NCBI RefSeq assembly: GCF_039769035.1
Contig: NZ_JBDMZG010000023.1
Location: 4,429-68,428, forward strand
From: Pacificibacter sp.
GTDB taxonomy: Bacteria > Pseudomonadota > Alphaproteobacteria > Rhodobacterales > Rhodobacteraceae
Direction of reading: 5' to 3'
DNA: 64,000 nucleotides
The notes beneath the pieces were generated by a model, which saw only the letters and a list, made by a program, of their open reading frames with translations, was not told the origin of the DNA and ran no database searches. Positions 12,817 through 62,127 of the stretch are shown here, in pieces. Position 1 is the first letter of the stretch. Every line of letters begins with the position of its first letter. The position numbers and the translations under genes were made by a program.

Positions 12817-12849
12817 GTTGGCACTAAGCGCAAGGATGAACGAAGAGCA

Positions 12850-14772: not shown

Positions 14773-15810
14773 ATGAAAAAGAATACGACACTTGCAATTG
14801 CAGTGGGTCTTGCGGGCGCAGCCTTGGCTCCAACTGCATCATTCGCGCAGAGCGCGACGGTTCAGCAGATTATGGATCGCGGGACTATGTTGTGCTCTGG
14901 CCACAACGGTAGCTACTTCGGTTTTGTCGAAGTGAACGACAAGAACGAATGGAAAGGTCTTGATATCGACCTTTGCCGTGCAATGACCACCGCGATTCTT
15001 GGTGATCCAGACAAGGCGCAAATTGTGCCGCTTAGCTGGGCCCAACGTTTCCCTGCACTTCAGTCCGGCGATGTCGATATCATTATTAAGGCGACAGGTT
15101 GGACAATGGGCCGCGATACAGAGCTTGGTCTTCAGTTCAGCTTGCCTTACTTCTTTGGTGGGACACAGTTCATGGTCCACGGTGATCTGGGTATCTCGGA
15201 CTCGTCCGGCCTCGAAGGCGGTACCGTTTGTGTTGAAGCGGGTACAACGATTGAACGTATTTCCGCAAACTACCTTCAGACCGCTGGCGTTGAGCACACC
15301 ATGGTGTCCTACGAAAGCGCGGCTGAACTTCGTGCGGCATATCTTGCAAATCGCTGTGATGCCTTTGCGGGTTGGGGCCCAAGTCTGGCGGTTCTACGCG
15401 CGACCGAACTCGATAACCCAGACGCACACGTCATTCTGAATGACCAACTCTCGAGCGAGCCAATCGCAGCAGCAATGCGTCAAGGCGATGAAGGTTTCGT
15501 TGATATGGCGAACTGGACAATCGCGGCGCTTTTGATTGCCGAAGAAGAAGGCGTCACCTCTGCGAATGTCGAAGAAATGGCCGCAACACCTCCGAACCCT
15601 AAGGTGGCACGCCTTCTTGGTGTTGAACCGGGAATGGGCGAGCGTCTTGGCATCCGTGATACTTGGGCGCGTGAAATGATCGCAGCAGTTGGTAACTTCG
15701 GTGAAATCTACGATCGAAACCTCGGTTCTGAAAGCCCGTACAATCTTGAGCGTGGCTTGAACAATCTCTGGAGCCACGGCGGCGTTCTTTACGCTCCGAT
15801 CCTTGACTAA
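14773..15810 (+). CDS. Amino-acid ABC transporter substrate-binding protein (AapJ/BztA-like)
   Basis: Signal peptide; GLDIDLCRA, RFPALQSGDVD, SSEPIAAAMRQGD, VGNFGEIYDRNLG and ERGLNNLW..GGVLYAP. Confidence 0.9.
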   Translation: MKKNTTLAIAVGLAGAALAPTASFAQSATVQQIMDRGTMLCSGHNGSYFGFVEVNDKNEWKGLDIDLCRAMTTAILGDPDKAQIVPLSWAQRFPALQSGDVDIIIKATGWTMGRDTELGLQFSLPYFFGGTQFMVHGDLGISDSSGLEGGTVCVEAGTTIERISANYLQTAGVEHTMVSYESAAELRAAYLANRCDAFAGWGPSLAVLRATELDNPDAHVILNDQLSSEPIAAAMRQGDEGFVDMANWTIAALLIAEEEGVTSANVEEMAATPPNPKVARLLGVEPGMGERLGIRDTWAREMIAAVGNFGEIYDRNLGSESPYNLERGLNNLWSHGGVLYAPILD

Positions 15811-15821
15811 ACAGTATATGG

Positions 15822-15845
15822 ACCGCCCAATCGATATTGGGCGGT
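15822..15845 (+). terminator. Stem-loop after the SBP gene
   Basis: ACCGCCCAAT-CGAT-ATTGGGCGGT. Confidence 0.6.
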
Positions 15846-15867
15846 TCACTTATATTTGGGGGCTAAT

Positions 15868-17004
15868 ATGACGACAACAGAAGTGCTTCGAAAGAAGAGT
15901 AGACAGCGAAAAATTACGATACAAGTATTGCTTGTTATCATCTCAATCATAGCGATTTGGGGGGCAGTGAGCAGTGCCCAAGTCAACCTTGCTGCGCTAG
16001 GAATTACGAACGGTTTTGGGTTTTTAGATCGCAGTACAGGCTGGGACTACAGCTTTTCTCTGGTCGAGCGATCCATCAATGATCCCTATTCAAAGACTTT
16101 GGTGATAGGATTTCAAAATACGATTTTCGTCGGTTTTATTTCCATCTTTTTTGCAACGATTTTTGGCTTCATCATCGGAACTGGACGCGATTCATCCCAT
16201 CCTGGCGTGAAGGCCGCCGCAACAGTTTTTGTACAAACGTTCCGTAATATTCCTTTGATTTTGCAAGGCGTTTTCCTTTACTCAGTTCTCATACATTTCC
16301 CAGGACCGCGCCAATCCATGTCATTCGCTGACAGTGTATTTTTGTCAAATCGTGGGCTTATGTTGCCAGGCTTAAATGTATCGCCTAGCGTCGCGGTCGC
16401 TTTGATTTTGGCCATAGCTAGCGTGGCTGTGCTTTTGGTGTGGAGAAAGGTGCCTTTGCTGCGTGGTTTGATAATTTGGATTGCTGCGGCCATCTCGATG
16501 TCTGTGATTGTTGCGTTTGTGATGCGTCCCGAGGGTGAGCCGTTGTTGTCAATCCCATCATTGAAAGGGCTTCGATTTAATGGGGGCATAACCGTTTCTA
16601 TTGAACTCGTAGCGATGATCACAGCGATCACATTGTACGGAAGTGCGTATATCGCAGAAGTTGTGCGCGGTGGCCTCAAACAAGTGCCCCGTGGTTTGAT
16701 TGAAGCGGGGCAGGCTGTGGGACTAACACAAGGTCAAATTTGGCACCGCATCAAGATGCCCATGTCGCTACGCAGCATCATTCCGCCATTGGGCAATCAG
16801 TGGATTTTCATCATGAAAGCCACCACCATCGGTATCGCTATTGGCTTTAGTGATATGTTCTACATTGTATCGAATTCCATTACGCAATCTGGGCAGACGC
16901 TTGAACTTATCTTCTTGTTGATGGCGGCGTTTCTTACCGTGAATTTTTCAATCTCAATTTTTACGAATTGGTTGAACAATCGACTAAAGCTAAAGGCACA
17001 CTAA
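15868..17004 (+). CDS. Amino-acid ABC permease (AapQ/BztB-like)
   Basis: GFGFL, FRNIPLILQ, AYIAEVVRGG..VPRGLIEAG (EAA loop) and IIPPLGNQ. Confidence 0.9.
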   Translation: MTTTEVLRKKSRQRKITIQVLLVIISIIAIWGAVSSAQVNLAALGITNGFGFLDRSTGWDYSFSLVERSINDPYSKTLVIGFQNTIFVGFISIFFATIFGFIIGTGRDSSHPGVKAAATVFVQTFRNIPLILQGVFLYSVLIHFPGPRQSMSFADSVFLSNRGLMLPGLNVSPSVAVALILAIASVAVLLVWRKVPLLRGLIIWIAAAISMSVIVAFVMRPEGEPLLSIPSLKGLRFNGGITVSIELVAMITAITLYGSAYIAEVVRGGLKQVPRGLIEAGQAVGLTQGQIWHRIKMPMSLRSIIPPLGNQWIFIMKATTIGIAIGFSDMFYIVSNSITQSGQTLELIFLLMAAFLTVNFSISIFTNWLNNRLKLKAH

Positions 17005-17005
17005 G

Positions 17006-18088
17006 ATGGCACATACTCAAAAATTATCTCCCAACCGCTTTCACGCCTATATGGCGTCTTTCTCAAAACGCGCTTTCGGGACCCCATCTGCAGCAGTTTT
17101 GTCCATCGTCATTTTTGGCGCTCTCGGGTATTGGACTTGGCTTGCGGTTGATTGGGCCATTTTTCGAGCGGTGTGGTCCGCCGAAAATGTTGCCCACTGT
17201 ACCGAAGAGGCGGGTGCCTGTTGGTCTGTGATTGATGCGCGCCATCGCCTGATCCTCTTCGGTCTTTATCCCTATGAGGAACATTGGCGATCTACATTTG
17301 CTTGCCTGTCCATTATTGCGACAGTGATCATTTCTTGTTTTCCGGCCACCTGGACGGCGAAGCGACTCACAAGCCTTTGGGTGGCAGGATTTGCTGCATA
17401 TTATCTCCTGATGGAAGGGAGCTTGCTGGGCCTTGCGCAGGTTACAACGGATGGGTGGGGCGGGCTTTCCCTCACGTTATTTCTGTTTGCGTCTGTTGTT
17501 CTATTGGGCATGCCTATGGGGCTTGGCTTGGCGTTGATGCGCCGCTCTGAGATGCCTGTTGTGCGTAGCTTTGCGGTGATCGTGATCGATACAATTCGTT
17601 CATTGCCTCTTTTGACTACACTGTTTACCGCGGCTGTCGTCGTTCCAATCCTTTTGCCAAGCTGGCTTGAAGGTGACAAGATTTGGCGCGTTATCATCGC
17701 GTTTTCTTTGTTCTTTGGCTGTTATCAGGCCGAAGTTTTCAGAGGCGGTTTTCAGGCCATTCCGAAAGGGCAATTCGAAGCCGGCAAGGCCCTTGGTATA
17801 GGGTATTGGAAGATCATGGCGCGCATCATTTTGCCGCAAGTGTTCCGCCATGCTTTGCCAAGTACCATCAATATGGTTGTTGTGACGTTTAAAGAGACAG
17901 CCATCGTGATCATCATCGGCTTCTTTGATGTATTGGCATCGGCCAAGGCTGCTTTCGGGACAGGCGAGTGGGCGCCGCATTACATGGAGGTCTATGTCTT
18001 TGTCGGTGCGATATATTGGACATTCATCTTTTCGCTCGGCCAGTATGGCGAGTATTTGAAAGGAAGAATGGCCTTATCGACGCACTAG
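17006..18088 (+). CDS. Amino-acid ABC permease (AapM/BztC-like)
   Basis: GACW, YPYEEHWR, WGGLSLTL, AEVFRGGFQAIPKGQFEA and FKETA. Confidence 0.9.
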   Translation: MAHTQKLSPNRFHAYMASFSKRAFGTPSAAVLSIVIFGALGYWTWLAVDWAIFRAVWSAENVAHCTEEAGACWSVIDARHRLILFGLYPYEEHWRSTFACLSIIATVIISCFPATWTAKRLTSLWVAGFAAYYLLMEGSLLGLAQVTTDGWGGLSLTLFLFASVVLLGMPMGLGLALMRRSEMPVVRSFAVIVIDTIRSLPLLTTLFTAAVVVPILLPSWLEGDKIWRVIIAFSLFFGCYQAEVFRGGFQAIPKGQFEAGKALGIGYWKIMARIILPQVFRHALPSTINMVVVTFKETAIVIIIGFFDVLASAKAAFGTGEWAPHYMEVYVFVGAIYWTFIFSLGQYGEYLKGRMALSTH

Positions 18089-35569: not shown

Positions 35570-36470
35570 CTAAAGCGTGCATTTCAATCGAGGAAATTTA
35601 CGGCGGTTGCGCCTTCCCGCAAACACTTGAACCGACAACCCGCCCTTAAAACGGCGGGTGTTGTTGTTTTGGGGGTCTGTGAGATCTAAGATTGCAGCCA
35701 ATTCCCCAAAGAGTTCAATCATATGACCATCATCAGCTGCTTCATCCGGATGCAGGCGCACCTTTGGAACAAGGCTACGAAGTAGCTCTGAGGCTTCAGA
35801 TCTGTTCGTCTCGTCATTGAGGCTGTCCGACAAGGCGGTGATCTTCTTGCTGTAGGTCTCTGCGAGGGCAGGGTGTAGCACAATTGGATCTTGTTCGGGC
35901 AGGGCTGCGAGCTTTGCTGTTAACTCGGTTTTGCGCGCCTCTAGGGCATCCATTTTTGTCTTCATAGAGGCGTGGAACATGCCCGCTGTGATGGCGTAAA
36001 CGATCTTCTGGATCTGCACGCCGAGCTGTTTGAGCTCACGTTCAATGGAGCTTCGCGCTGATGTGCTCTCGCTGTGCAGTCGGTTCCATTCCCTTTGATA
36101 TTCCGTGACGAACTCCTTGAGCAGCTCTGGATGCATCAGCTTGGATTTGAGGCCACTCAGAATACGCTCTTCAACACTCTCGCGTTTGATGAGCTTGCGG
36201 TTGTCGCAAGTGCCTTTATTGAGAGCGGAAGCGCAGCCGTATTTGGTCTTGTTCATCAGGGTATAGGAGCCACCGTAGTGGCCACACTTAAGAAGACCTG
36301 AAAACAGGTGTTTGGTACGTTTTGCTCGAGCGAGTGGATTGCTATCGTTGGTCTGCTGGGCTTCGCTCAATGTTGATCTGATCACGCCTTGGCGCCGCTT
36401 GATCCGTTGCCACATATCAGCTTCGATCAGGCGAAGGTCTGGTACTGCGTTTTTCAAGTGGCCGCCTCCC
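35570..36470 (-). pseudogene. Large serine recombinase, C-terminal remnant (Zn-ribbon and coiled coil; catalytic domain lost)
   Basis: VPDLRLIEADMW, HLFSGLLKCGHYG (CxxC degraded), YGC..KGTCDN, LHPALAETY and IELFGELAAIL; the upstream sequence is not recombinase-like. Confidence 0.8.
35601..35625 (+). repeat. att-like 25-bp repeat, copy 1
   Basis: CGGCGGTTGCGCCTTCCCGCAAACA; 23/25 identical to 63136-63160; lies inside the recombinase 3' end. Confidence 0.7.
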
Positions 36471-36699
36471 AGTCCTGTCCAACGTCGCTGCGCAATGTCA
36501 ATTATGTTGTTAGGTTTCGACAATGGGCCAAACATGAAGACTTAAACTTTTGTGGCACAGTTTGTACGCTAAATGGGTCAGCCGCAGCCCGCTCTCAATC
36601 AAAAAATCTATGGACGCGATTTCCAAAGAATCGCCGCATTCTGTGCGGTTTGCTGAACGCACGTCGTCCATTTGCGTCAACAGCTCTTGCTGCTCGTGA

Positions 36700-37406: not shown

Positions 37407-37709
37407 AGACAAAGCAATTGATCTAACGCGCCTAAAGCGAATACTGCATCGCCTAGCGCTTCGGCGCAGCCAGTGCTAAAAACACCTGACCTCAATGAGT
37501 TAAGTTTGCAGATCAAGACAGGGGATGTCGCAATGTTCTTAACTTGGTAAGATACTGTATTGAAGATATACTGTCCTAAAAGCCAGCCCTGCTATGTATT
37601 CATTTAGTGCCCCAAAAGTTTGCATTGACTTTGCGGGTCTTATGGCGGGCGTAAATGTAAACGTCATAGATGCTATGAAGGTGGCTATGTGGCCAAGAAA
37701 CGAGCGACA

Positions 37710-38399
37710 ATGAGAGTCACGTACAAAGAAGTCAAAGCGGATATCTTGGCTAAGATTGTCAGGGGCGATTGGGGGCCGGGCGAATTGGTTCCCAACGAAA
37801 TGGATCTGACGGAAACCTACAATTGCGCCCGCGCCACAGTGAACCGCGCGATGCGCGAGCTTGCGGATGAAGGCATTATTGAGAGACGCCGCAAAGCAGG
37901 CACGCGCGTGCGCGAGACCCGCATTCTTCAGGCCAAATTTGATATTCCAGTGTTGCGCAACGAAATCGAAGCGCTCAACGCGGAATACAGATATTCATTG
38001 GTGTCTAGTAGCGTTGAAAACGCGCCTGATTGGCTGCGAGCGCGCCTGCAATTGCCCAAGGCAGCAGATGTACTGCATCTCATTTGCATGCACTATGCAG
38101 ACGGAAACCCATATCAATACGAAGATCGCTGGATCAATCTTGATGCGTTGCCGCAAGCGAGAGAGATTGATTTTTCCAAACTCGGTCCAAATGATTGGTT
38201 GATGAGTGAAATACCATACTCAGAAGCTGAAATTAGCTTTTCTGCAGCATTGGCAGACAAAGAGATGACTGAGTTTTTGGAATGTGCTGTAGGGGATCCG
38301 ATTTTCATCGTCGAGAGATCTACGTGGCACGCTGAGCAAGCGATGACCTATGTTAGGTTGTCGCACAAGCCTGGGCACCGGATGACAACGCGCTATTGA
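37710..38399 (+). CDS. hutC: Histidine utilization repressor (GntR/UTRA)
   Basis: wHTH PNEMDL..CARATVNRAMREL..RRRKAGTRV plus UTRA YEDRWINL; convergent with hutU. Confidence 0.85.
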   Translation: MRVTYKEVKADILAKIVRGDWGPGELVPNEMDLTETYNCARATVNRAMRELADEGIIERRRKAGTRVRETRILQAKFDIPVLRNEIEALNAEYRYSLVSSSVENAPDWLRARLQLPKAADVLHLICMHYADGNPYQYEDRWINLDALPQAREIDFSKLGPNDWLMSEIPYSEAEISFSAALADKEMTEFLECAVGDPIFIVERSTWHAEQAMTYVRLSHKPGHRMTTRY

Positions 38400-38473: not shown

Positions 38474-40144
38474 TTACCCAAGAATACCGGGCAGATTTAG
38501 ATCATGCGCGCGGGCACATGCTTTGGCGTCATCATAGCCCGCATCGGCGTGACGCATGACACCTGTGGCCGGATCGTTCCACAAGACACGTTCAATGCGG
38601 CGATCCGCATCCTCAGAGCCGTCACAGCAAATCACCATGCCGGAGTGTTGCGAAAAGCCTATGCCAACGCCGCCGCCGTGGTGTAATGACACCCAAGTCG
38701 CGCCTGAAGCTGTGTTTAGAAGCGCATTCAAAAGCGGCCAGTCCGATACAGCATCTGAGCCGTCCATCATCGCCTCTGTTTCGCGATTGGGGGAGGCGAC
38801 CGATCCTGAGTCGAGGTGGTCGCGGCCAATCACGATCGGCGCGCTGAGCTCGCCAGTGCGAACCATTTCGTTGAAGGCAAGACCTAGCTTGTGGCGAATG
38901 CCCAAACCAACCCAGCAGATGCGTGCAGGCAAGCCTTGGAATTCGATACGTTCGCGAGCCATATCGAGCCAAGTGTGCAGATGCTTGTCCTCGGAAAGAA
39001 TTTCCTTAACTTTGGCGTCTGTTTTGTAGATGTCCTCTGGATCACCAGACAGCGCCGCCCAGCGGAACGGACCGATGCCGCGGCAAAAGAGCGGACGGAT
39101 ATATGCTGGAACGAAGCCTGGGAAATCAAAGGCGTTTTCAAGACCTTCTTCAAGCGCAACCTGGCGAATGTTGTTGCCGTAATCAAACGTAGGAATGCCC
39201 AGTTTCTGGAAATCGATCATCGCTGCTACATGCGCTTTCATCGAGGCGCGGGCGGCAGCTTCTACAGCCTTCGGATCGCTTTCGCGTTTCTCTTTCCATT
39301 GCGCCATGCTCCAACCTTGGGGCAGGTAACCGTTGATTGGGTCATGCGCAGAGGTTTGATCTGTGACCATATCTGGACGCACGCCGCGCTTTGCGATTTG
39401 CGCAAAGACATCTGCCGCATTGCCCAAAAGGCCAACAGATTTTGCTTCACCAGCGGCGGTCCATTTTTCGATCAACGCCAAAGCTTCGTCCAACGTATCG
39501 GCGCGCTCATCTACATAACGGGTGCGCAGGCGGAAATCGATGCTGTCTGGGTTACATTCAACAGCCAAGCAGCATGCGCCTGCCATAACTGCCGCCAAAG
39601 GTTGCGCGCCGCCCATGCCGCCAAGGCCGCCTGTGAGGACCCATTTGCCCGTCAGATCGCCGCCGTAATGTTGGCGACCAGCCTCGACGAAGGTTTCATA
39701 CGTCCCCTGCACGATGCCTTGGGAGCCGATGTAAATCCAAGAGCCGGCCGTCATCTGGCCGTACATGGCCAAGCCCTTTTTATCGAGCTCATTGAAGTGA
39801 TCCCAATTTGCCCAATGCGGTACGAGGTTGGAGTTAGCGATCAAAACGCGTGGGGCGTCTTTGTGGGTTTGGAACACGCCGACAGGCTTTCCAGACTGCA
39901 CCATCAACGTTTGATCTTCTTCAAGGTTTTTCAGTGCCTCAACGATGAGATCAAAATCTTTCCATGTGCGCGCAGCGCGCCCGATACCGCCGTACACCAC
40001 CAGTTCATGGGGGTTTTCGGCTACATCAGGATGGAGGTTGTTCATCAACATCCGCATCGGCGCTTCGGTCAGCCAGCTTTTGGCAGTGATGTCAGAGCCC
40101 GTCGCGGGGAAAATATCACGGGTGTTCTTGTGGGGATCGCTCAT
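38474..40144 (-). CDS. hutU: Urocanate hydratase
   Basis: [62 protein letters not shown] and [18 protein letters not shown]. Confidence 0.97.
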
Positions 40145-40941
40145 GATGTGCCTTTCGGGAAAGGGGCCAATTCGGCCAGTTTGGTCAAAATTGATTGGAG
40201 GTGAGGACGCAGCTTTGCGGCTTTTTCCTCGTCATAAGTCCAAGGGCTTGTCTCAGATTGCAGATACATGCTTTGCGCCAATTCCATTTGGATCGCGTGA
40301 AAACCTTCTGCAGGGCGGCCATAAGCGCGGGTCGTCCAGCCGCCTTTAAAGCGGCCATTGGTGACTGAGGAATAACCTTCTGCAGCGGCGCAAATGTCTT
40401 GGGTGATTTGCGCGACCTTCGGATCGCATGTGGTGCCTAGATTCGTCCCGATGTTGAAGTCGGGCAGGGTGCCTTCGAACAGAAAAGGGATGTCCGATCG
40501 GATCGAATGGCAGTCATACAGAATGACAAAACCATGTAGGCTCTTAACACGCTCAAGTTCGGCCACAAGGGCGGCGTGATAGGGCGCATGAAAAGCCAGA
40601 CGACGTGTTTCATTAGTCGCAGCATCGGGTGCCTTGTCCCAAATATCATGGCCGTCAAAGTCAGTGAGCGGCACCAGACCTGTCGTGTTTTGGCCAGGGT
40701 AGAGCGACACACCAGAGGGATCACGATTGGCGTCCACAACATAGCGGTGAAACGTTGCGCGCACAGTCGTGACGTCGGGCAAGAGGCCCTCATAGAGCGT
40801 GTGAATGTGCCAATCCGTATCATCCAATCCGCGCCCGCGGTCGTTGAGATCCGCCAAAACATCCTCTGGTACATAAGTTCCTGTGTGTGGCAGGCCCAAA
40901 ACGATCGGGCTATCACCTTGTGTGATTTCTACGGGTGTCAT
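40141..40941 (-). CDS. hutG: N-formylglutamate deformylase
   Basis: [40 protein letters not shown] and HAIQMELAQ. Confidence 0.93.
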
Positions 40942-41033
40942 GGTGTCATCTCCTGCGTGTCGCTGGCTGCTGTGGTAATGTCCTCGGATGCGATCATTGT
41001 TGCCGCCTCAGACTTAAAAGGCTGCGGGCTCAC
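40938..41033 (-). pseudogene. 31-codon ORF at the hutH position, probable in-frame deletion scar of hutH
   Basis: GTG overlaps the hutI stop (GTGA) behind GGAGG; TGA overlaps the hutG start (ATGA); translation [31 protein letters not shown]. Confidence 0.55.
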
Positions 41034-42241
41034 AATTTGCCTCCGAAAATACGCGCGTGAAGTGGGTTGAAGCCAATCCGATAAGAGAGTTCGGCTGGGT
41101 GTTTGATGTCCCAAACGGCCATGTCAGCACGCATGCCAACAGCAAGTGTGCCCGTGTCCGTTAGGCCCAAAGCACGCGCTGCGTTTTGCGTCACGCCGCG
41201 CAGGGTTTCTTCGGGTGTCATACGAAACAGAGTGCACCCCATGTTGAGGGTGAGCAGCAGCGAATTTAGGGGGGACGATCCGGGGTTGATGTCTGTCGCG
41301 AGCGCCATCGGCACCTTGTGTTGGCGCAGCGCATCGATTGGCGGCGCTTGTGTTTCGCGCAAGGTGTAGAACGCACCGGGCAGGATGACAGCAACCGTGC
41401 CCGCATCCTTCATGGCGACGACGCCGTCCTCGTCCAGATATTCGATATGGTCGGCAGACATAGCGCCATAGCGTGCAGCCAGTTTTGCGCCGCCGAGGTT
41501 GGAGAGCTGTTCAGCATGCAGCTTGACCGGTAAGCCCAGCTCCTGAGCCACATCAAACACGCGCGCGATTTGTTCAGGCTGAAAAGCGATGCCTTCGCAA
41601 AACCCGTCCACAGCGTCGACCAAGCCTTCGGCATGGGCTGCGCGTAGGGCAGGGATGCAGACATTATCGATGTACGCATCATCTCGACCGGCATATTCAG
41701 CTGGTGTTGCATGCGCGCCAAGGAAGGTCGTTTTCACACGTAAGGGGCGGTGTTTCGGGATCGCGCGGGCGACACGCAGCATGCGCAGCTCGGTCTCCAG
41801 ATCCAAGCCATAACCAGATTTCACTTCAATACATGTGACGCCTTCTGCAATCAAAACATCCACTCGGCGCAAGGCATCGCGAAGCAGGTCTTCTTCGGTT
41901 GCAGCGCGTGTGGCATTGACCGTCGATACAATCCCGCCGCCTGCGCGTGCGACCTCTTCATAGCTGGCGCCACTCAGTCGCATCTCGAACTCTGCTGCGC
42001 GGTCGCCGCCATGTACAATATGCGTATGGCAATCGATCAGCCCAGGGGTGACGAGGCGACCACCAAGGTTGGTTTCAGGCAGAGCTTTATACTGTTCAGG
42101 GATCTTGGACTGAGGTCCGATCCAATCGATAACCCCGTCCACGACTGGCACTGCTGCATCTTCGATCAGTCCGTATGGCGCGTCTGTTTCACCCATTGTC
42201 ACAAGATTCAGGTGGGAGAAGAGTCTGTTGTCTTTCGGCAT
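41030..42241 (-). CDS. hutI: Imidazolonepropionase
   Basis: [41 protein letters not shown] and [10 protein letters not shown]. Confidence 0.96.
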
Positions 42242-42268
42242 TATCAATCCGGTTTGGCTAAGAATATA

Positions 42269-42312
42269 CATTTAAGGTATGCAAAGATATGCTTTATGTC
42301 TATACATAAAGC
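42269..42312. promoter_or_regulatory. HutC operator box 1 within a duplicated 40-bp promoter block
   Basis: GCTTTATGT-CTAT-ACATAAAGC palindrome with core TATGTCTATACATA upstream of hutI. Confidence 0.8.
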
Positions 42313-42445
42313 GGGCTCCGAGTTGATTTTCTTAGACAGTCGACACTCTCTTGTCAGCCTCGGGAAATCTGCTCAGCCATAACTTTCAACTGCCACTCGA
42401 GTATCGAGCTGCTCTCGTACTTAAAAATATTCAGGTTCAATCAAG

Positions 42446-43420
42446 ATGAATTACCGCCAAGCCGTGCTCTTCATGCCAGGGGTGCTTATTTGTTCAATCG
42501 TCGCGGCCGCCTCGCGATTTTTATCAGATCACTACAGTGCTCCCACGATGTTATTTGCGCTGCTCATTGGGTTGAGTCTGCATTTCTTGGTGGATGACCA
42601 GAAAGTGGCGCCGGGGATAAGGTTCGCGGCGGCGGATTTGTTGAAATTGGGGGTGGCATTGTTGGGGTTGCGAATCACGTTGGCTGATATTGGCGATTTA
42701 GGTGTGCAAACGATTGGTCTCGTTATTGGCGGCGTAATCTTTTCCATCTCTATCGGGATTGCGATCACGTTATTGCTTGGAAAAAATATCAGGTTCGGCG
42801 TTTTGTCTGGCGGAGCTGTTGGTATCTGCGGGGCGTCTGCGGCCTTGGCCATTTCAGCAGTGTTGCCCACGTCTGACACCAGAGAACGCGATACCGCTTT
42901 TATCGTAGTTGCCGTCACAACACTCTCTACAGTAGCAATGGTTCTCTACCCGATTTTGGGAAAACGTTTGGGATTAGACGACCAGCACATTGGGATCCTT
43001 TTAGGGCTAACAATTCACGATGTGGCGCAGGTTGTCGGTGCCGGGTTTTCGGTTTCAGAAGAAACGGGCAACATCGCAACCCTCATTAAGCTGTTTCGTG
43101 TCTCCATGCTTGTCCCAGTCATAATTGTGATCTCATTCGCGTTCCGCAAGCAAAACGCGCAATGCAATCGCAGCGGTGTTCCCTGGTTCGTTCATGGCTT
43201 CGCAATCGCTATTGTGATCAACAGTCTAGGTGTTCTTCCTGAGACGATCAGGGTGTTGCTAGCGGCGGTTTCATCATGGATGTTAGTGATTGGGATTGTT
43301 GGGATCGGGATAAAAACCTCCCTAAAAAGCTTGGGCCATGTCGGGGGTGCAGCGCTGGTTATTGTCTGCCTGGAAACCCTCCTGCTTTTTGCGGTGGCGG
43401 CTGTAATCCTTGTGCTGTGA
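42446..43420 (+). CDS. YeiH / putative sulfate exporter (TauZ/SuyZ-like) membrane protein
   Basis: LKLGVALLGLRI, GAVGICGASAALA, GLTIHDVAQVVGAG, IKLFRVSML and GIGIKTSL. Confidence 0.88.
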   Translation: MNYRQAVLFMPGVLICSIVAAASRFLSDHYSAPTMLFALLIGLSLHFLVDDQKVAPGIRFAAADLLKLGVALLGLRITLADIGDLGVQTIGLVIGGVIFSISIGIAITLLLGKNIRFGVLSGGAVGICGASAALAISAVLPTSDTRERDTAFIVVAVTTLSTVAMVLYPILGKRLGLDDQHIGILLGLTIHDVAQVVGAGFSVSEETGNIATLIKLFRVSMLVPVIIVISFAFRKQNAQCNRSGVPWFVHGFAIAIVINSLGVLPETIRVLLAAVSSWMLVIGIVGIGIKTSLKSLGHVGGAALVIVCLETLLLFAVAAVILVL

Positions 43421-43626
43421 CAGTTCAATGCAACTGTCATCGTATCGCTAAGCGATCTAGAGGCTTCTAAAATTTATCTTACGCAGGCCATGCATACTTG
43501 GAGTTTTAGGACTTAGGTCACCGCATCTTCCGTGATTTCACGGAAGGCCGTGGATGTCATTTTGCGGCGCTCAAAACGGCAAAGAAACAAGAACAGGTTG
43601 ACGGTTCAATATAACGGAGAAAACCG

Positions 43627-44211
43627 ATGCAAATTCTGAAATCAAATGCCTTGATTGATGTGCCATGGAAAAACGGCGGCGGGATCACGCGCAACATCGC
43701 GAAAGGTTTGCGTGAGGGCAAGATTGCTTGGACCATTAGCCGCGCTGATGTCGCCGAGGCTGGCCCTTTTTCTGATTTTGCAGGCATGATACGTGTGCTG
43801 ACTGTAGTGTCTGGCGGGACGATGGTTTTGGACACACCCAAAACGTCCCTCACGGCGGTGCTTTTTTCGCCAGTTCGCTTTGATGGGGCGCTGAAGGTGT
43901 TTTCGCGTTTGGAAGATGGCCCGATTACTGATCTGAATCTTATGTTTGATCCGAGCTTTTGTGACGGGGATGTCGTGGTCCACAAAGGCCCGTGCGATCT
44001 CAAAGCCACGTGTCCGGAGCACGGAGTGTTGGCGTTTCATGGGCTTGCCGGAGGCCCCTGCGTCGACGGAACGGCAATCAGCTCCGCGGATACGGCGTTT
44101 GTCACACAGCCCAACGCGATGCTTCAGTTGAAAGAAGGAGAGGCATTGCTTGAGCTACGCTTAAGCTATCTGGATCAAGACAATGCCATCAAGCTGTGCA
44201 TTGCAGATTGA
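43627..44211 (+). CDS. hutD: HutD-family protein
   Basis: PWKNGGGITRNI, ISRADV..GPFSDFAG..R and TDLNLM. Confidence 0.9.
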   Translation: MQILKSNALIDVPWKNGGGITRNIAKGLREGKIAWTISRADVAEAGPFSDFAGMIRVLTVVSGGTMVLDTPKTSLTAVLFSPVRFDGALKVFSRLEDGPITDLNLMFDPSFCDGDVVVHKGPCDLKATCPEHGVLAFHGLAGGPCVDGTAISSADTAFVTQPNAMLQLKEGEALLELRLSYLDQDNAIKLCIAD

Positions 44212-50811: not shown

Positions 50812-50831
50812 CATTATGTCTGCACATAATG
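50812..50831. promoter_or_regulatory. HutC operator box 2, in the SBP / lyase-1 divergent region
   Basis: CATTATGT-CTGC-ACATAATG; core TATGTCTGCACATA is 12/14 identical to boxes 1 and 3. Confidence 0.7.
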
Positions 50832-51099
50832 AGACTTAAGCAATTAACGACCTGTCAATAAATGGTTGAAAGCACACAGAACGGAAAATCTTGATTTAAT
50901 TCACAACAAGTCAAGTTAACCATTTGAAATATAAGTATTAATAATATTGCGAATGCGGAGGGTATGCTCATTTTTTGAGCTGATTTTGAGAGTTGTCACG
51001 CAAAAACGCAATTTTGCTCGCATTTAGCACATGTTGAACCCCGCATTTCCCACATAAGAATTGCTGAGTTTTATACTTCTCAGGATGACCGGAGCGACG

Positions 51100-52569
51100 A
51101 TGCAATACGATAAGCAAACCCCTACAACTGAATTGACAGGTGATATGTTGACCTGCGAAGTCCTCGTGGCGATCTCGAAGGGACAAATGCATGCGAGCTT
51201 ATCTGAAGCAGCAACACAGCGTATAGCCGAGTCTCGCAAGCATGTGGATAAGATTGTCAATGAAAGGCGTCCTGCATACGGTATTACAACGGGAGTTGGA
51301 TCTCAAAAAGATCATCAAATCGATATGGAGGCTGTCGCCTTGTACAATCGGCGTTTGGTGAAAGGGCATGCGACGCGTGTGCCGGGGCCATCTTACGACC
51401 CTTCGATTGTGCGCGGCGCATTGGTCGTCCTCTTGAATGGGTTCGCCAAAGGTGGATCTGGTGTCACACCGGAGCTGACAAAAATTTTGAAACAGAAAAT
51501 TTCCGCGAGCGAGATGCCAACAATTGATGCAAGCGGATCGGTCAGTGCATCCGACCTTGTGCCTCTGGCTCAAACCGCCGACTGGTTGCTATCAAGCGAA
51601 GACGCCGAGTCAGCAGGACTGCCCAAGGCAAAAGAAACGCTCTCTTTGATCAACTGGAATGCATTTACTCTGTCCGAAGGGGCGCAGCACATAACGGAAC
51701 TGCTGCGTTTGCTGGACGTTTATACTCTTGCGTTGGCGACAACATACGAAGGCTTTCGAAGCAATCTTGATGCCATTGCGGAGCCCGTGAATGCGCTTCA
51801 CCGGCGAGGCGGACAGTCTAAAGTTGCGGCCGATCTGCGGGCTCACCTTAAGGGCAGTGCGCTTTGGCAATCTGGTGCCTCGCGGTTCCTCCAAGATCCT
51901 CTAAGCTTTCGGACGGCCTCACAGATCCATGGGGCTACATTTGAGTGCTTTAAGTCGCTAGAATCCGTTTGGAACAGCGAGTTGAACACCGTCAATGACA
52001 ACCCTATTATTGATCGCGCTGATGGTCGGGCATATTCACATGGCAACATGGACACCACGCGGTTTACGCTGGCGCTGGACACTGCGCGGCAAGCCTTGGC
52101 TAAGGTGGTGGATGTGTCTGGTGAGCGTATTCACAAACAACAATGGCCCGTTTTTTCCGGTCTGCCTATTGGCCTTTCTGAAGAGGATTCCGCGACTGGG
52201 GGCGTTCAGTTTTTGAACCTTGGGCACATCTCTTCTTCCCTGATCACATCGGTGAAAATTTGGGCCACACCACACTTGCTAAACTCAGTTGGACAGGTGG
52301 CTGATGGGGTTGAAGACACTGCAAGCCATGCCATGCACGCCGTACATGATTTGAAAAGGCAATTGGATGCGAGCTGGAAGATTGCCGCTTTAGAAATGCT
52401 GGTGGCTGTTTGGGCCATTCACCGCCGTAAATTGCCTTTGGATGAGTTGGGAAAAGATGTGCGAGAGGTGTATCAAACGCTTCTCCCTTTGCTGCCCATC
52501 GGTCATGAAGGTGATGCAGTTTTCGATCTGGCGGAGGTCATAGCTGCGGTTAAGGCAATCAGGGTTTAG
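51100..52569 (+). CDS. HAL/PAL-superfamily lyase lacking the MIO motif (lyase 1)
   Basis: YGITTGVG, NGFAKGGSGV, QDPLSFR..QIHGA, NTVNDNP, HGN and VED; GSVSASDL at 51535-51558 instead of GSVGASGDL. Confidence 0.85.
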   Translation: MQYDKQTPTTELTGDMLTCEVLVAISKGQMHASLSEAATQRIAESRKHVDKIVNERRPAYGITTGVGSQKDHQIDMEAVALYNRRLVKGHATRVPGPSYDPSIVRGALVVLLNGFAKGGSGVTPELTKILKQKISASEMPTIDASGSVSASDLVPLAQTADWLLSSEDAESAGLPKAKETLSLINWNAFTLSEGAQHITELLRLLDVYTLALATTYEGFRSNLDAIAEPVNALHRRGGQSKVAADLRAHLKGSALWQSGASRFLQDPLSFRTASQIHGATFECFKSLESVWNSELNTVNDNPIIDRADGRAYSHGNMDTTRFTLALDTARQALAKVVDVSGERIHKQQWPVFSGLPIGLSEEDSATGGVQFLNLGHISSSLITSVKIWATPHLLNSVGQVADGVEDTASHAMHAVHDLKRQLDASWKIAALEMLVAVWAIHRRKLPLDELGKDVREVYQTLLPLLPIGHEGDAVFDLAEVIAAVKAIRV

Positions 52570-53473
52570 GGGCCGCTTGTTTTAGCAGCTGTTGAATGTG
52601 ATCCAAATATTGCGACTTGCGCGGCTTAACTTCGCTTAGGCTCCGTGCGTTTTGCGACACATAATATCCGTACGGCAAGCTGAGTTGAGTGCTGGCGAGC
52701 GCAGTGACTTGGCCTGCCGTTATGGCCTTTTGCGCTAAGCTGAGCGGGGCAAGCATGATACCAGCGCCTCGGATCGCCAGTTCCAGCCCTATGTTTGTCC
52801 CAGCAACGCGCAGACCTGCACGCGCATCGGAGATTTTACGGTTTCCAAAATTTCGAAACCAAGTCGCCCAAGTCGGATATGACGTATATGTTTCGCCCCA
52901 ATCTACATGAATGAGCAGCCTGTCGGGGATGTCCAAAAGATCCGGCGGCAGGTGCTGTGCCAAAGGGGGGGCACAGATGGGGGCCACGGTGTCTTGGAAA
53001 AGCAATTGGCTGGTGACGTTTGCGGAGTTGTGGTCTTGAAACGAGACTCTCAAGTCGATCTCGTGTTGGTCAAAGACAAACGGATCTGAGTCTATTTGAA
53101 GCGACACGCCCACCTGAGGGTTGGAGTGCCGAAACTTGGCGACAGCGGGAACAACCAAACCTTCGGCAAGCGATTGAATTGTGCTGATCACAATTCTGGA
53201 GCGCATATCCTGCTCAAGAAATCGCTCCGTGATTTCAGAAAGATCTGACAGGGCACGGGCCACGTGGGGGTATAGCATCTGTCCCGCATCCGTCGTCGTT
53301 AGGAAGTTGTTGCCGCGCAGAAATAATTGCTTTCCAAGGAACTCTTCGGCTTTGCTGACTTGAAGACTGACGGCTGCGGATGAGACGCCGAGTTCCGCAC
53401 CGGCAGCCGTGAATGTTCCGCATCTGACCGTGGCTTCGAAGGCTTTAATCGCGTTGAGAGGGGGTAATTTCAT
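52559..53473 (-). CDS. LysR regulator, GcvA/AmpR type
   Basis: MKLPPLNAIKAFEA..FTAAGAELGVSSAAVSLQV; divergent from the OCD gene. Confidence 0.9.
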   Translation of the reverse strand: MKLPPLNAIKAFEATVRCGTFTAAGAELGVSSAAVSLQVSKAEEFLGKQLFLRGNNFLTTTDAGQMLYPHVARALSDLSEITERFLEQDMRSRIVISTIQSLAEGLVVPAVAKFRHSNPQVGVSLQIDSDPFVFDQHEIDLRVSFQDHNSANVTSQLLFQDTVAPICAPPLAQHLPPDLLDIPDRLLIHVDWGETYTSYPTWATWFRNFGNRKISDARAGLRVAGTNIGLELAIRGAGIMLAPLSLAQKAITAGQVTALASTQLSLPYGYYVSQNARSLSEVKPRKSQYLDHIQQLLKQAAPKP

Positions 53474-53578
53474 AGGGCCAGTATTGGCATAAGAAAAACT
53501 TGTGCAATGCCCAATTTTTCTAGAATCACGTTTTTCTTGAAAGCGCGTAATCTGTTCCAAACTGAATTGGAGGAAACG

Positions 53579-54589
53579 ATGTCGCGTATGGAAATTGAAT
53601 ATTTGGGCAAACCGGAAATCGATGCACTGGCTCTGACGAACGATGAAATTTTAAATGCCATCGAGCAGGGCTTGATTGCAGCTGGGCAGGGCAAAACCGT
53701 TATCGAGCCGCGCATGCACCTGACCCCTGACCCGAGCTTCGATGGGCATTTCAACGTTCTGCGCGGATATGTTGAGCCGCTCAACTATGCTGGCGTTAAA
53801 GTCGTGGGTGATTTTGTCGACAACTACAAACATGGGTTACCCAGTGAGTTGGCCCTGCTGAACCTGTTCTGTCCACGCACTGGTGCGCCCAAAGCCGTGA
53901 TCGATGCCGCAGGCATTACGGATATGCGGACGGGAGCATTGACTGCGCTCGGGGCGAAATGGCTTGGTCCAAAAAATCCAAAAGTATTGGGGCACCTTGG
54001 GGCCCGAGGGACGTCCTATTGGAATGTGCGTCTTCTCGATCACCTTTTTGACTTTGAAGAAATTCGTGTGCATTCGCGCCGCCCAGAAAGCCGCAATGCT
54101 TTTGCAGAGAAGCTGACACAGGACCTCGGCAAGAAAATCACTGTAACGGAAGATTGGGAAAGCTGCCTTAAAAGCGCTGACATTATGATAGAAGCAACGC
54201 GTCTGAATGAACCAACGCCAAAGTTCGACCGGTCATGGGTGAAAAAAGGAAGCTTGGTCATACCGTATGGCACGATGAGCACGCTGCCGTTGGATTTCGT
54301 GGAGGGCATAGACAAATTCGTCATGGATGATTTGGGGCAAATGCGTGCGGGGCACCTCGGAGCACTGCGGCCACATATTGATGCGGGTCTGATCTCAGAA
54401 GAGAACTTTTACGCAGAGATCGGTGAGATAGCAGCCGGATTGAAACCTGGACGTGAACATGAGGATGAGACCATCTTGTTTTGGCACCGGGGTATGTCGA
54501 CCGGCGATATCGCTTTGGGAGCAGCGATTTTGGAAAAAGCACGCGCACGCGGCAATGTGCAAAATCTGCTTTACCGAGAAGACCAATGA
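53579..54589 (+). CDS. Ornithine cyclodeaminase / mu-crystallin family protein
   Basis: GVKVVGDF, TDMRTGA, GARG Rossmann motif, ADIMIEAT, EIGEIAAG..GRE and GDIALG. Confidence 0.88.
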   Translation: MSRMEIEYLGKPEIDALALTNDEILNAIEQGLIAAGQGKTVIEPRMHLTPDPSFDGHFNVLRGYVEPLNYAGVKVVGDFVDNYKHGLPSELALLNLFCPRTGAPKAVIDAAGITDMRTGALTALGAKWLGPKNPKVLGHLGARGTSYWNVRLLDHLFDFEEIRVHSRRPESRNAFAEKLTQDLGKKITVTEDWESCLKSADIMIEATRLNEPTPKFDRSWVKKGSLVIPYGTMSTLPLDFVEGIDKFVMDDLGQMRAGHLGALRPHIDAGLISEENFYAEIGEIAAGLKPGREHEDETILFWHRGMSTGDIALGAAILEKARARGNVQNLLYREDQ

Positions 54590-56115
54590 AAGCGCTGAGA
54601 TTAGACGGTTCAAACTTGACTGTTGGCGTCTTGGCGCGAGCGGCTTGTGGGGAATACCAAGTCGAGCTTTCAGACACGGGCTTAGAACGCATGCGCCGCG
54701 CGCGAGCACTTGTGGACCGCGTGATCGAACAGCGCGTTCCTGTCTACGGTGTGACAACTGGCCTTGGGGCCAGATCATCCGAAGCGCTCGATGCGCACAC
54801 CTTGCAGGAATTCTCAATCCAAACTCTGCGTGGGCGGGCGCAAGCGATGGGGTCAAAGGCGCCCCGCGAAATTGTGCGCGCCGCCATGATCGTCAGGGCG
54901 AACACAATGCTGACGGGATATAGTGGCGCTCGGCCGCAAGTCGCGCTGCATCTAGCGGCCTGTCTGAATGCCAATTTGACCCCTGTCGTTGGTGAGGTCG
55001 GCTCGATTGGCGCCGCAGATCTTGTGCAGAACGCAACGCTTGGTCTTGCTTTGATTGGCGAAGGAGAGATGCAAGATGCGTCAGGTGAAATCGGGCCGAG
55101 CGCTGATAAAATGCGTGCATACGGCATCACCCCACTGACGTTGGGGCCCAAAGACGGCTTGGCTTTGGCCAATCATACAGGCTTTTCAAGTGGAGCTGCT
55201 GCTCTGGCGTGTCATGCCGCTGAGGTTGCATTTGAAGTGGCGCAAACGGCGGCCTCTTTGTCATTAGAAGCCTTTCGCGCCAATTTAACCCCCTTCAAAC
55301 ACAGCGTGCTTGCGGCGAAACCGTTGCCCGGGCAAAGCTTGGTGGCCGCAGGGCTGAGAGCGCGCTTAGAGGGGAGTTTGCTGTGGGATGAAAAACATGC
55401 ACGCCGTCTTCAAGATCCGCTGTCCTATCGCAATATCTGCCAAATTCATGGGGCGACCGCCAGTGCCTTAGAGCAGGCTCGATTGGTCGTTGAGATTGAA
55501 GCGAACGGCTCAAGTGACAATCCGATTGCATTGATCGAAAGCGATGAGATTATCTCGTGCGGCAACTACTATACGGCTGAATTGGGTCAGGGGATTGAGG
55601 GGATAAGCCGCGCAATCGCCTCGCAGGCCATGGCTCAATTGTCGCGGATGTCCAAACTGCTTCATCCTGACTTTAGCGGGCTGCCCGCATTTTTGGCGCA
55701 GGAGAACAGTGGATCAAATGGGTTCGCTCCCGTTATGAAGACCGCCGAGGCGTGGTTGGCCAAACTCGTACATGCTGCGCAACCGGTGCCAATTTGGCCG
55801 AGCATCAATGCCAATGGGGTAGAAGATTGTCTGCCCAATTCACCACAGTCTATTTCTGCGTTGTCTACTGCGGTTGAGTGCATGCGCCATATGAATGCTC
55901 TGGAGCTTTTGATTGCTGCGCAAGCGATCGAGCTGCGTGCGTGTCAGGTTGAGATGGCGCCCTTTGTTCAAGGCACTTTCGCCATGGTGCGCACGCATGC
56001 AAAGGCTTTGACGATAGACCGCTCTTTTGGCTGCGATGTGGATGGGCTGGTGCAGGTCATGCGGGCTGGTGCAAGCTCCGCACTCTTTCCGGTGTGTGCT
56101 ATGTCGCGTAAATGA
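54586..56115 (+). CDS. HAL/PAL-superfamily lyase lacking the MIO motif (lyase 2)
   Basis: VYGVTTGLG, GYSGAR, LGPKDGLALAN, QDPLSYRNICQIHGA, SDNP and VED; GSIGAADL at 55000-55023; ATGA-coupled to the OCD gene. Confidence 0.85.
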   Translation: MKALRLDGSNLTVGVLARAACGEYQVELSDTGLERMRRARALVDRVIEQRVPVYGVTTGLGARSSEALDAHTLQEFSIQTLRGRAQAMGSKAPREIVRAAMIVRANTMLTGYSGARPQVALHLAACLNANLTPVVGEVGSIGAADLVQNATLGLALIGEGEMQDASGEIGPSADKMRAYGITPLTLGPKDGLALANHTGFSSGAAALACHAAEVAFEVAQTAASLSLEAFRANLTPFKHSVLAAKPLPGQSLVAAGLRARLEGSLLWDEKHARRLQDPLSYRNICQIHGATASALEQARLVVEIEANGSSDNPIALIESDEIISCGNYYTAELGQGIEGISRAIASQAMAQLSRMSKLLHPDFSGLPAFLAQENSGSNGFAPVMKTAEAWLAKLVHAAQPVPIWPSINANGVEDCLPNSPQSISALSTAVECMRHMNALELLIAAQAIELRACQVEMAPFVQGTFAMVRTHAKALTIDRSFGCDVDGLVQVMRAGASSALFPVCAMSRK

Positions 56116-60498: not shown

Positions 60499-60713
60499 GC
60501 GCCGTGTGAAAGTCAATGAGTGCTCCCTAATTGCTACGCAGCAATTCGTTGAGTTGAAATATAGGTCTAGAAAAGAGCTGCGCTATTAAACGACGTGCCG
60601 CACAGTTTCAAAACAGGTGAATGTCCGACTTCATGTTGTGACTTCACATGGTTGAGTGCGCAGTAGCACAGATTTTCGCGCTGATTTAAAACTTCACTAT
60701 GGCAAAAAAATTC

Positions 60714-60753
60714 CATTTAAGGTATGTGCTGATATGAGTTATGTCTATACATA
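60714..60753. promoter_or_regulatory. HutC operator box 3 / second copy of the 40-bp block
   Basis: CATTTAAGGTATGtgctGATATGagTTATGTCTATACATA; 34/40 identical to 42269-42308; upstream of hutF. Confidence 0.8.
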
Positions 60754-60768
60754 TAAACAGAGGTTGAA

Positions 60769-62127
60769 ATGATTTTTGCAAAGCAAGCACTGCTTTCAAG
60801 TGGATGGGCGTCAGGTGTTCGCCTCGATGTGACGCAGGGGACGATCACAAAAATTGAAACGCAGCAGCAGGCTCACGCAGGTGATGTGACAGTCGACACC
60901 CTCTTGCCTGCCTTGGCAAATCTACACAGTCACAGCTTTCAGCGGGCTATGGCAGGAATGACCGAATACCGCATGGCTGGTAAGGACAGTTTCTGGACGT
61001 GGCGCGATTTGATGTACAAGTTCACCTCAACGATATCAGCTGAACAAGTCGAGGCAATTGCAGCCTTTGTGTTCTTGGAAATGCAAGAGGCGGGCTATGC
61101 CAGCGTTGGTGAGTTTCACTACCTTCACCACCAACCGGGCGGCATGCCTTATGATGATCTTGGCGAACTGTCGTCCCGCATCGCATCCGCGGCAGATGTG
61201 ACCGGCATTGGCCTAACACATCTCCCAGTTCTCTATACATATGGCGGGGCTGGGCAGGTGCCGCTCAAAGCAGGACAGGCGCGTTTCGGAAACTCTGCCG
61301 ATCAGTTTAATGCATTGGTCGATAAAGCAAAAAACGCGGTGTCTTCCCTCGCAGATGATTGCCGCGTCGGCATCGCACCGCACTCATTGCGCGCGATATC
61401 GCCCGATGACCTCAAAGCCGTCTTGGCCGCTCGCTCCAACGGGCCAATCCATATTCATATTGCCGAACAACCCAAAGAAGTCGCTGATATTCAAGCTTGG
61501 CTCGGCGCACGTCCCGTTGAGTGGTTGCTGGCAAACACGGACGCCAATGAAGATTGGTGCCTGATCCATGCCACCCATATGACAGAAGTCGAAACAAAGA
61601 ACATGGCCCAGTCTGGCGTGGTTGCTGGCCTGTGCCCTGTCACCGAGGCCAATCTGGGAGATGGCCCGTTCAATGGACAGGCATATGTGAACCATGGTGG
61701 AGCCTTTGGTGTCGGATCTGACTCCAATGTTCTGATCTCATTGACGGAAGAGCTGCGTACTTTGGAATATTCGCAACGTCTGCGTGATGTTGCGCGAAAC
61801 ATCATGGTCAAAGGTGAGGGCTCCGTTGGGGCGAAACTCTATTGTGGTGCAGCAAAGGGCGGCGCGCAGGCGCTGAGCCGTCAAGCGGGCGACATTTCCG
61901 TTGGAAACCTCGCAGATCTTGTAGCCATCGACAGCACGGCGCCGGCACTCTGCGCGCTACGCCAAGATCAAATCCTCGATGGTCTTGTGTTCGCAGCGAA
62001 GGATACAGTCGTGACAGATGTTTGGTCCGCTGGCAGACACGCGGTGCAAACTGGCCGCCATGTGAAACGGGATGAGATCACTGCAGCCTACACCTCAGCA
62101 ATGCACGCTTTGGTGGCCTCGCTCTGA
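60769..62127 (+). CDS. hutF: Formimidoylglutamate deiminase
   Basis: NLHSHSFQRAMAGMTE, SFWTWR, GEFHYLHH, HIHIAEQPKEV, CPVTEANLGDG and GSDSNV. Confidence 0.96.
   Translation: MIFAKQALLSSGWASGVRLDVTQGTITKIETQQQAHAGDVTVDTLLPALANLHSHSFQRAMAGMTEYRMAGKDSFWTWRDLMYKFTSTISAEQVEAIAAFVFLEMQEAGYASVGEFHYLHHQPGGMPYDDLGELSSRIASAADVTGIGLTHLPVLYTYGGAGQVPLKAGQARFGNSADQFNALVDKAKNAVSSLADDCRVGIAPHSLRAISPDDLKAVLAARSNGPIHIHIAEQPKEVADIQAWLGARPVEWLLANTDANEDWCLIHATHMTEVETKNMAQSGVVAGLCPVTEANLGDGPFNGQAYVNHGGAFGVGSDSNVLISLTEELRTLEYSQRLRDVARNIMVKGEGSVGAKLYCGAAKGGAQALSRQAGDISVGNLADLVAIDSTAPALCALRQDQILDGLVFAAKDTVVTDVWSAGRHAVQTGRHVKRDEITAAYTSAMHALVASL

Follow-up and report, generated by a model that had tools for sequence, protein, structure and literature searches.

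YeiH of Salmonella enterica and E. coli and BP2808 of Bordetella pertussis are membrane proteins of the PF03601 family with about nine predicted transmembrane helices, including re-entrant or broken ones, and both are induced by a metabolite-sensing regulator encoded beside the gene. A Salmonella yeiH deletion mutant has been found to be hypersensitive to sulfite, which induces yeiH via YeiE (bioRxiv 10.1101/2025.07.27.662810), and for BP2808 a 140-fold induction by cysteine and a requirement under cysteine stress have been reported (PMC13689094). TauZ and SuyZ, which belong to alphaproteobacterial gene clusters for taurine and sulfolactate and have been classified as putative sulfate/sulfite exporters (TC 2.A.98, the PSE family), adjoin the enzyme Xsc or SuyAB-like enzymes, and TauR regulons have been reported to include TauZ (PMC5320631). 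Here we describe a PF03601 gene on a 64,000-nucleotide stretch of Pacificibacter sp. DNA (contig NZ_JBDMZG010000023.1, positions 4,429 to 68,428; hereafter the window), which we call yeiH for short (42446-43420, forward strand, 324 residues) and which lies in the hut locus for histidine catabolism, directly behind an operator of the HutC type. The gene is of foreign origin, follows a duplicate of the native hutF control region and is under purifying selection; that it acts there as a HutC-controlled relief valve for sulfur oxyanions is a tentative proposal.

The window gene resembles the YeiE-YeiH module and BP2808 in family and in the predicted number and kind of helices, and its predicted induction by a metabolite-sensing regulator beside the gene is a further likeness. 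The wiring is different. The YeiE-YeiH module is headed by a divergent LysR-type sensor, whereas the upstream neighbour of the window gene is hutI and a GntR/HutC operator takes the place of the sensor; the sole LysR gene of the surrounding island (52559-53560) lies 9 kb away. Its product is GcvA-like (187 bits on the GcvA model), with only a partial match to YeiE (E 1e-13). With TauZ and SuyZ, which are relatives of 44-56% identity from the same bacterial family and fall into the wider clade of a quick tree, the window protein shares the putative role of an accessory exporter attached to a catabolic operon, yet no Xsc- or SuyAB-like neighbour is present and the genome is without Xsc. The true nearest orthologues are PF03601 genes linked to aldoxime-dehydratase (Oxd)-like genes (L002, L006, L045, L048, L063 and L064); there the dehydratase partner adjoins, with a catalase downstream in the closest ones, whereas in the window the partner is gone except for 64 bp and the gene has been fused to a hut promoter. 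Regarding the hut side of the comparison, Pseudomonas possesses HutT-type permeases and the HutXWV ATP-binding cassette (ABC) system, which are controlled by HutC, import histidine or urocanate and are conserved across many hut loci. In these cases, too, a HutC operator precedes transporter genes that lie in a hut locus beside hutD, but the transporters belong to unrelated families and work as importers, whereas the window gene is of an exporter-type family and has been found in the hut loci of two genomes only.

The operator in question (box 1, 42294-42309) is the palindrome TTATGTCTATACATAA with the core GTcTAtAC, which ends 136 bp before the yeiH ATG and is unchanged in sequence in L005, a metagenome-assembled relative (SRR28780247). 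It is embedded in a left copy of the native hutI/hutF intergenic block (42262-42345), which consists of the operator and a decayed hutF start. This left block aligns with the right copy at about 60700-60790, where the real hutF has been retained, and with the hutI-hutF intergenic DNA of the two same-genus genomes G008 and G019; the first hutF codons are kept in it, and the ATG has become TTG near 42323. Because 42262-42345 duplicates the hutI/hutF block, whichever promoter drove hutF now points into yeiH too. No terminator-like site has been found on the forward strand between box 1 and the yeiH ATG, and the predicted operator is located upstream of yeiH on the same transcription path. The link between operator and gene is common to L005 only. 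The preliminary description had placed yeiH directly behind a HutC box, with a co-oriented hutD following and a distance of about 135 bp to the box; this layout has proven correct, with intact open reading frames, and its origin can now be traced to a duplication of the native hutF control region. Based on the position and the origin of the control block, HutC probably controls yeiH by promoter capture.

When the window was searched for the 16-mer with three mismatches at most, four sites were obtained (42294, 50814, 60739 and a weak one at 14720), as compared to about 0.14 strand matches expected by chance, and none of 100 shuffles equalled the observed count. Box 2 (50814-50829) lies between an ABC transporter operon and a gene resembling histidine ammonia-lyase (HAL), termed lyase 1 below, and box 3 (60739-60754) is the operator of the right copy, 14 bp ahead of the real hutF. 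The weak box at 14720-14735, which bears three mismatches, lies 38 bp ahead of the genes of an amino-acid ABC transporter (14773-18088, SBP_bac_3 and two permeases) and is preceded by a gene for a MocR-type GntR-aminotransferase regulator (12730-14214); the box may belong to MocR instead of HutC.

The boundary of the foreign DNA is marked by a relic. Nucleotide homology to L002 and L006 begins 64 bp before the yeiH ATG, within their PF13816 gene, and the stretch 42382-42445 (forward strand) consists of the last ~20 codons of such an aldoxime-dehydratase-like gene, frameshifted and with the stop lost, so that it reads FNCHSSIELLSY, as compared to FNCHPSTGLLPYFENCQV followed by the stop in L002. 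No aldoxime-dehydratase homologue has been detected elsewhere in the genome by tblastn, on which this absence is based, as the PF13816 family search matched no control genome. The closest homologues of yeiH belong to other Rhodobacteraceae (82-85% identity) and have a PF13816 gene, encoding an aldoxime-dehydratase-like haem protein, 5 bp upstream and a catalase gene downstream. Among the Oxd-linked orthologues as a whole, identities are 55-85%, and the transporter gene directly adjoins the PF13816 gene, with gaps of 2-18 bp in four loci. The pairs (L002:6967-9086, L006:6967-9086, L045:870-3069, L048:5949-8002, as well as L063 and L064) sit in aldoxime-nitrile clusters with nitrile hydratase, amidase, nitrilase, glutathione S-transferase and often catalase. 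Another homologue, P0010 from Ruegeria, is 67% identical. In a quick maximum-likelihood tree (IQ-TREE, SH-aLRT support only, midpoint root) the window protein pairs with P0005, the other protein in hut context (support 100); this pair is nested in the Oxd-linked clade (99), which in turn is nested in a group with SuyB-like- and Xsc-linked members (97). Vertical inheritance of yeiH within the genus has been considered and rejected, as the same-genus homologues are only 45-51% identical; in the three genomes with both on one contig, they are found 31-47 kb from hut.

The yeiH product matches Pfam PF03601 (Cons_hypoth698) with 211.1 bits (E 2.3e-62, cut-off 24.5) over model positions 1-302 of 304, and no second PF03601 gene exists in the genome (98.7% complete). 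On TIGR00698, the model for the "YeiH family putative sulfate export transporter", it reaches 118.6 bits and stays under the cut-off of 232.6. It is therefore a member of the PF03601/PSE family and not of the curated YeiH subfamily, and the YeiH label that the preliminary description had given to the gene holds at the level of the family but not of the subfamily. Between the window and L005 the ratio of nonsynonymous to synonymous substitution (dN/dS) of yeiH is 0.127 at a dS of 0.50, comparable to 0.106 for hutC; yeiH is under purifying selection, and two species have thus retained a functional gene in this place. The stop codon of yeiH (TGA, 43418-43420) corresponds to TCA (Ser) in the closest relatives, whose tails run 32-37 non-conserved residues further, and the DNA downstream of the stop still encodes a similar tail in frame. 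The core of the protein is complete, and a damaging truncation of the C-terminus has been rejected, since conservation ceases past the last helix and more distant homologues stop at the same point as the window protein. The AlphaFold2 model of the protein (pLDDT 89.4, pTM 0.84) retrieves in Foldseek the Na+/citrate symporter CitS as best match (5xar and 5a1s, TM-score 0.51-0.53), followed by Na+/H+ antiporters, and the sequence itself gives no match to chains of the PDB at E ≤ 1. On this predicted model the re-entrant or broken helices and the proximity to the 2HCT transporter CitS are those of a CPA/AT-type fold, in line with the reported relation of the PSE family to structure 5a1s (PMC8396727).

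The second gene behind box 1 is hutD (43627-44211, forward strand, 194 residues; HutD, PF05962, 107.7 bits). It is 70-77% identical at the nucleotide level and 61-63% at the amino acid level to hutD of G008 and G019, and by this comparison it is the native orthologue, inverted and relocated from its native place behind hutF. Its dN/dS against L005 amounts to 0.31, compared to 0.05-0.13 for the other six genes examined in the same way. The spacer of 206 bp between yeiH and hutD (43421-43626) is 91% identical to that of L005, which exceeds the conservation of synonymous sites in the flanking genes, and folds into two adjacent, conserved hairpins (z-score -2.8). It contains no clean intrinsic terminator and one weak terminator-like match at 43537-43554. 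As the spacer is conserved, has two hairpins and lacks a clean terminator, co-transcription of yeiH and hutD appears probable; the spacer itself might serve for processing or attenuation or contain an internal promoter.

The remaining hut genes have been assigned by NCBIfam equivalog models above their cut-offs: hutC (37689-38399, forward strand), hutU (38474-40144) and hutG (40141-40941), both on the reverse strand, and hutF (60769-62127) behind box 3. The imidazolonepropionase gene hutI (41030-42271, reverse strand) is identified by TIGR01224 (481.6 bits, cut-off 298), and 174 bp separate it from yeiH. Its longest open reading frame begins at 42271, 22 bp from the operator; the real start is probably 42241, as suggested by the L005 gene call (403 aa) and the better Shine-Dalgarno spacing. 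After hutD an Opp/Dpp-type ABC importer comes on the reverse strand. In G008 and G019 the arrangement is hutC, then hutU-hutG-hutH-hutI, a divergent gap of ~60 bp, hutF, and a convergent hutD behind it, and no transporter gene lies inside the hut locus of these two genomes. The window locus is without hutH, and hutI and hutF are now ~18 kb apart. L005 shows the identical layout at ~88-89% identity (89% at the nucleotide level over 14 kb). Debris of mobile elements has been seen beside both hut loci, namely a recombinase fragment (zinc beta-ribbon, XisF-like) at 35570-36535 of the window and, on the matching side of the relative, an rve integrase fragment (L005:2655-2882). The duplicated control block, the dehydratase relic, the relocated hutD and the purifying selection on yeiH are new here.

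From these features the following course of events can be proposed. The gene would have entered as a ~1.1 kb cassette from an aldoxime-dehydratase-yeiH operon of another Rhodobacteraceae lineage, bringing along 64 bp of the dehydratase gene, and would have landed behind the duplicated hutI/hutF control region at the time when the 18-kb island between hutI and hutF was forming; the native hutD would have moved in behind it after the cassette had landed. HutC bound at 42294-42309 would keep yeiH transcription off until urocanate accumulates, upon which transcription from the copied hutF promoter would run into yeiH and probably on into hutD. The protein, a secondary carrier, would then extrude a small sulfur oxyanion, i.e., sulfite or sulfate, by an elevator-type mechanism, and would be an accessory and dispensable relief valve that is induced along with urocanate catabolism; the valve might serve sulfur freed from an ergothioneine-type substrate of the second lyase of the island (lyase 2). 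Taken as a whole, this explanation of a captured PF03601 cassette turned into a HutC-controlled sulfur-oxyanion valve is the one we put forward, with less than even confidence.

The proposed function draws on the family. In a census of 80 loci from species-representative genomes, all carrying yeiH homologues of 44-82% identity and with the neighbours within 4 kb clustered, Xsc adjoins the transporter in nine loci (TIGR03457, 946 bits), a SuyB-like dehydratase-family protein occurs in six and a sulfolactate-dehydrogenase-like protein in five, and DsrE2 and an HdrA-like protein have been found in six and five, respectively. Systems of the Xsc, SuyB-like and DsrE2/Hdr-like kinds, beside which relatives of 44-56% identity repeatedly stand, free sulfite inside the cell, in the cytoplasm. 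In soil and freshwater Alphaproteobacteria (L078, L081, L083, L084, L089, L100 and L134) a yeiH homologue stands beside DsrE2 and an HdrA-like flavoprotein, an arrangement that fits the export of sulfite from sHdr-type sulfur oxidation. Taking this census together with the two papers on the Salmonella and Bordetella proteins, the family-level link to sulfur oxyanions is sound, and the earlier statement that YeiH, TauZ and SuyZ proteins accompany desulfonation pathways agrees with these counts at the level of the family. By analogy within the family, sulfite or sulfate would most likely be what the window carrier extrudes. No gene for a sulfite-releasing enzyme (Xsc, SuyAB, CuyA and the like) has been detected in the window, and the idea that yeiH is the TauZ of this cell has been rejected, as no Xsc scores above cut-off in the genome.

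The source of such an oxyanion leads to the lyases of the island. The genome is without a canonical hutH, and its only two PF00221 genes lie in the island, both without the Ala-Ser-Gly tripeptide that forms the methylidene-imidazolone (MIO) cofactor. Lyase 1 (51061-52569, forward strand), located behind box 2, is an MIO-less member of the HAL family with His at the position of Lys384, and lyase 2 (54481-56115, forward strand), likewise MIO-less, has Lys at this position, which is the only hint of a sulfur-bearing substrate. In the ergothionase of T. denticola the thiolate is bound by Lys384, a residue missing from betaine lyases whose substrates contain no sulfur (bioRxiv 10.64898/2026.04.22.720169). 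The Lys384 equivalent is kept and the MIO tripeptide absent in all seven lyase-2 orthologues from other genera; a canonical HutH has Val. Because the lysine has been retained in lyase 2 and in these seven orthologues, the enzyme may plausibly act on an ergothioneine-type, sulfur-bearing histidine betaine. Lyase 2 is accompanied by a gene of the ornithine cyclodeaminase (OCD) family (53507-54589), and the two sit behind the LysR regulator gene and not behind a HutC box. The pair has been found in six other genera; across six genera (window 53507-56115, L147-L152) the OCD partner is 73-87% identical, compared to 46-57% for lyase 2. HutU matches the hutU model with 949.8 bits (cut-off 375) and stays below the cut-offs for thiourocanate hydratase (677 vs 930) and S-methyl-thiourocanate hydratase (689 vs 880); it is the single urocanase of the whole genome, by which the previously reported absence of a second urocanase paralogue (a thiourocanate hydratase) from the window extends to the genome. 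With this plain urocanase as the only one available, sulfur would have to leave before HutU acts. The preliminary description had further suggested that the substrate may be a sulfur-bearing histidine whose sulfur leaves as sulfite: the first half is plausible in view of the lysine and the missing MIO motif of lyase 2, and the second half, the exit as sulfite and its export by yeiH, has found neither a sulfite-forming enzyme nor comparative support. The substrate of the carrier and its link to thiohistidines are only weakly suggested by these features, and that YeiH exports sulfite derived from a thiohistidine appears doubtful to us.

A number of results weigh against an exporter dedicated to this pathway. 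The functional claim for yeiH is drawn from its position alone. Neither a cysteine-dioxygenase-type gene (PF05995) nor an Xsc above cut-off is present in the genome, and no sulfite-forming enzyme or sulfur oxygenase has been recognised in the island or the genome. An actinobacterial ergothioneine dioxygenase with a desulfinase is said to release SO2; a search of the available literature has yielded no ergothioneine dioxygenase and no route to hercynine and sulfite. The ergothioneine and thiourocanate routes described in the papers examined release H2S (PMC13405746; bioRxiv 10.64898/2026.04.22.720169, Discussion). The genome already has five TauE/TSUP genes, the protein remains under the YeiH-subfamily cut-off, and its nearest orthologues are tied to an aldoxime-nitrile cluster in which no sulfur step is evident. 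A private promoter within 42345-42445 could also drive the gene. Finally, the comparative data speak for a local event. In a family census of one genome per genus, 300 genera were covered, 100 of them with PF03601 and 159 with hutU; both genes could be placed in ~45 genera, five genomes having been left out since the place of hutU was not among the matches listed. Among these matches no genus of the ~45 has PF03601 within 20 kb of hutU, the closest distances being 31 kb and 40 kb. The 80 YeiH loci are all free of hut and HAL-like genes over a distance of 10 kb, and for the lyase-2 module all seven other genera are without PF03601 within 20 kb, three of them without any in the genome. No TauE gene occurs on the lyase contig in the five lyase-2-module genomes searched, and in G208 the lyase-2/OCD pair follows right after hutC in a complete hut locus, which still has hutH and contains no exporter. 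As the module lies elsewhere without an exporter nearby, the pathway evidently needs no linked one. Judged from these genomes, hut and yeiH came together only once and recently, and the adjacency is seen in two closely related genomes.

The same data favour the strongest alternative, according to which yeiH is a passenger that landed by chance during illegitimate recombination and performs general sulfite or anion homeostasis or another cell-wide job, with a HutC control that is accidental and either tolerated or bypassed by a promoter in the relic region. The adjacency is confined to one small clade, the cassette bears the scar of a former operon, and the lyase-2 module works elsewhere without an exporter nearby. 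Moreover, yeiH is the only PF03601 gene of the genome, and selection for a general role would therefore also yield a low dN/dS. Yet with a repressor on its operator a housekeeping exporter would seldom be expressed, the precise placement between a copied promoter and a relocated hutD looks like the building of an operon, and the layout has been kept in two species at a dS of ~0.5. We regard a chance passenger as only slightly less likely than the HutC-controlled sulfur-oxyanion valve, which we prefer.

For the carrier itself, the Oxd-linked subclade may have shifted from sulfur oxyanions to an organic anion, for example a carboxylate product or a substrate of the aldoxime-nitrile pathway, and here it would import or export an organic intermediate, for example urocanate, a histidine betaine or a breakdown product. 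This is suggested by the closest clade, in which genes of 55-85% identity adjoin PF13816 genes in nitrile-pathway clusters without a sulfur enzyme, and by CitS as the best structural match (TM-score 0.53). But transport of an organic solute is not known for any PF03601 member, the Oxd clade branches among relatives linked to Xsc and SuyB, and hints of sulfur chemistry have been seen in three of its members, with a SorA-like molybdoenzyme and a cytochrome c beside one, SulP beside another and a TauD-family gene near the third. Moreover, an ABC importer is already encoded in the island behind box 2. An organic-solute carrier seems improbable. Equally improbable is the full model of the preliminary description, in which a thio- or sulfo-histidine is oxidatively desulfurised in the cell with sulfite as obligatory product and YeiH as its dedicated, HutC-controlled exporter, since the ergothionase-type lyase 2 with its conserved thiolate lysine, the lack of a thiourocanate hydratase, by which sulfur must leave before HutU, and the link of the family to sulfite are faced with the lack of a recognised oxygenase that would act on the sulfur, an OCD-family partner of the NAD(P) type that better fits reductive chemistry, the occurrence of the same module without a nearby exporter in the other genera examined, and the position of lyase 2 and OCD behind a LysR regulator rather than a HutC box.

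Regarding the biology of the organism and of the family, the far-reaching version, in which the island represents an undescribed aerobic route from ergothioneine-type thiohistidine betaines to urocanate with sulfite exported by a HutC/urocanate-controlled YeiH-family valve that promoter duplication had recruited, would be held with little confidence. If the gene were indeed wired to HutC and served the substrate of the island, it would point to a previously undescribed aerobic fate for the sulfur of ergothioneine in marine bacteria and would provide a physiological substrate context for the poorly understood YeiH/PSE family, and, as a sulfite valve, it would be the first case of a Hut regulon that includes its own exporter for sulfur oxyanions. 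Even otherwise, the locus is a clean and datable case of regulon growth, in which an operator-promoter region has been duplicated, a scarred foreign single-gene cassette has been taken up behind it and a native gene has moved in, and it exposes a recurrent, unexplained pairing of a YeiH clade with aldoxime-dehydratase-like genes.

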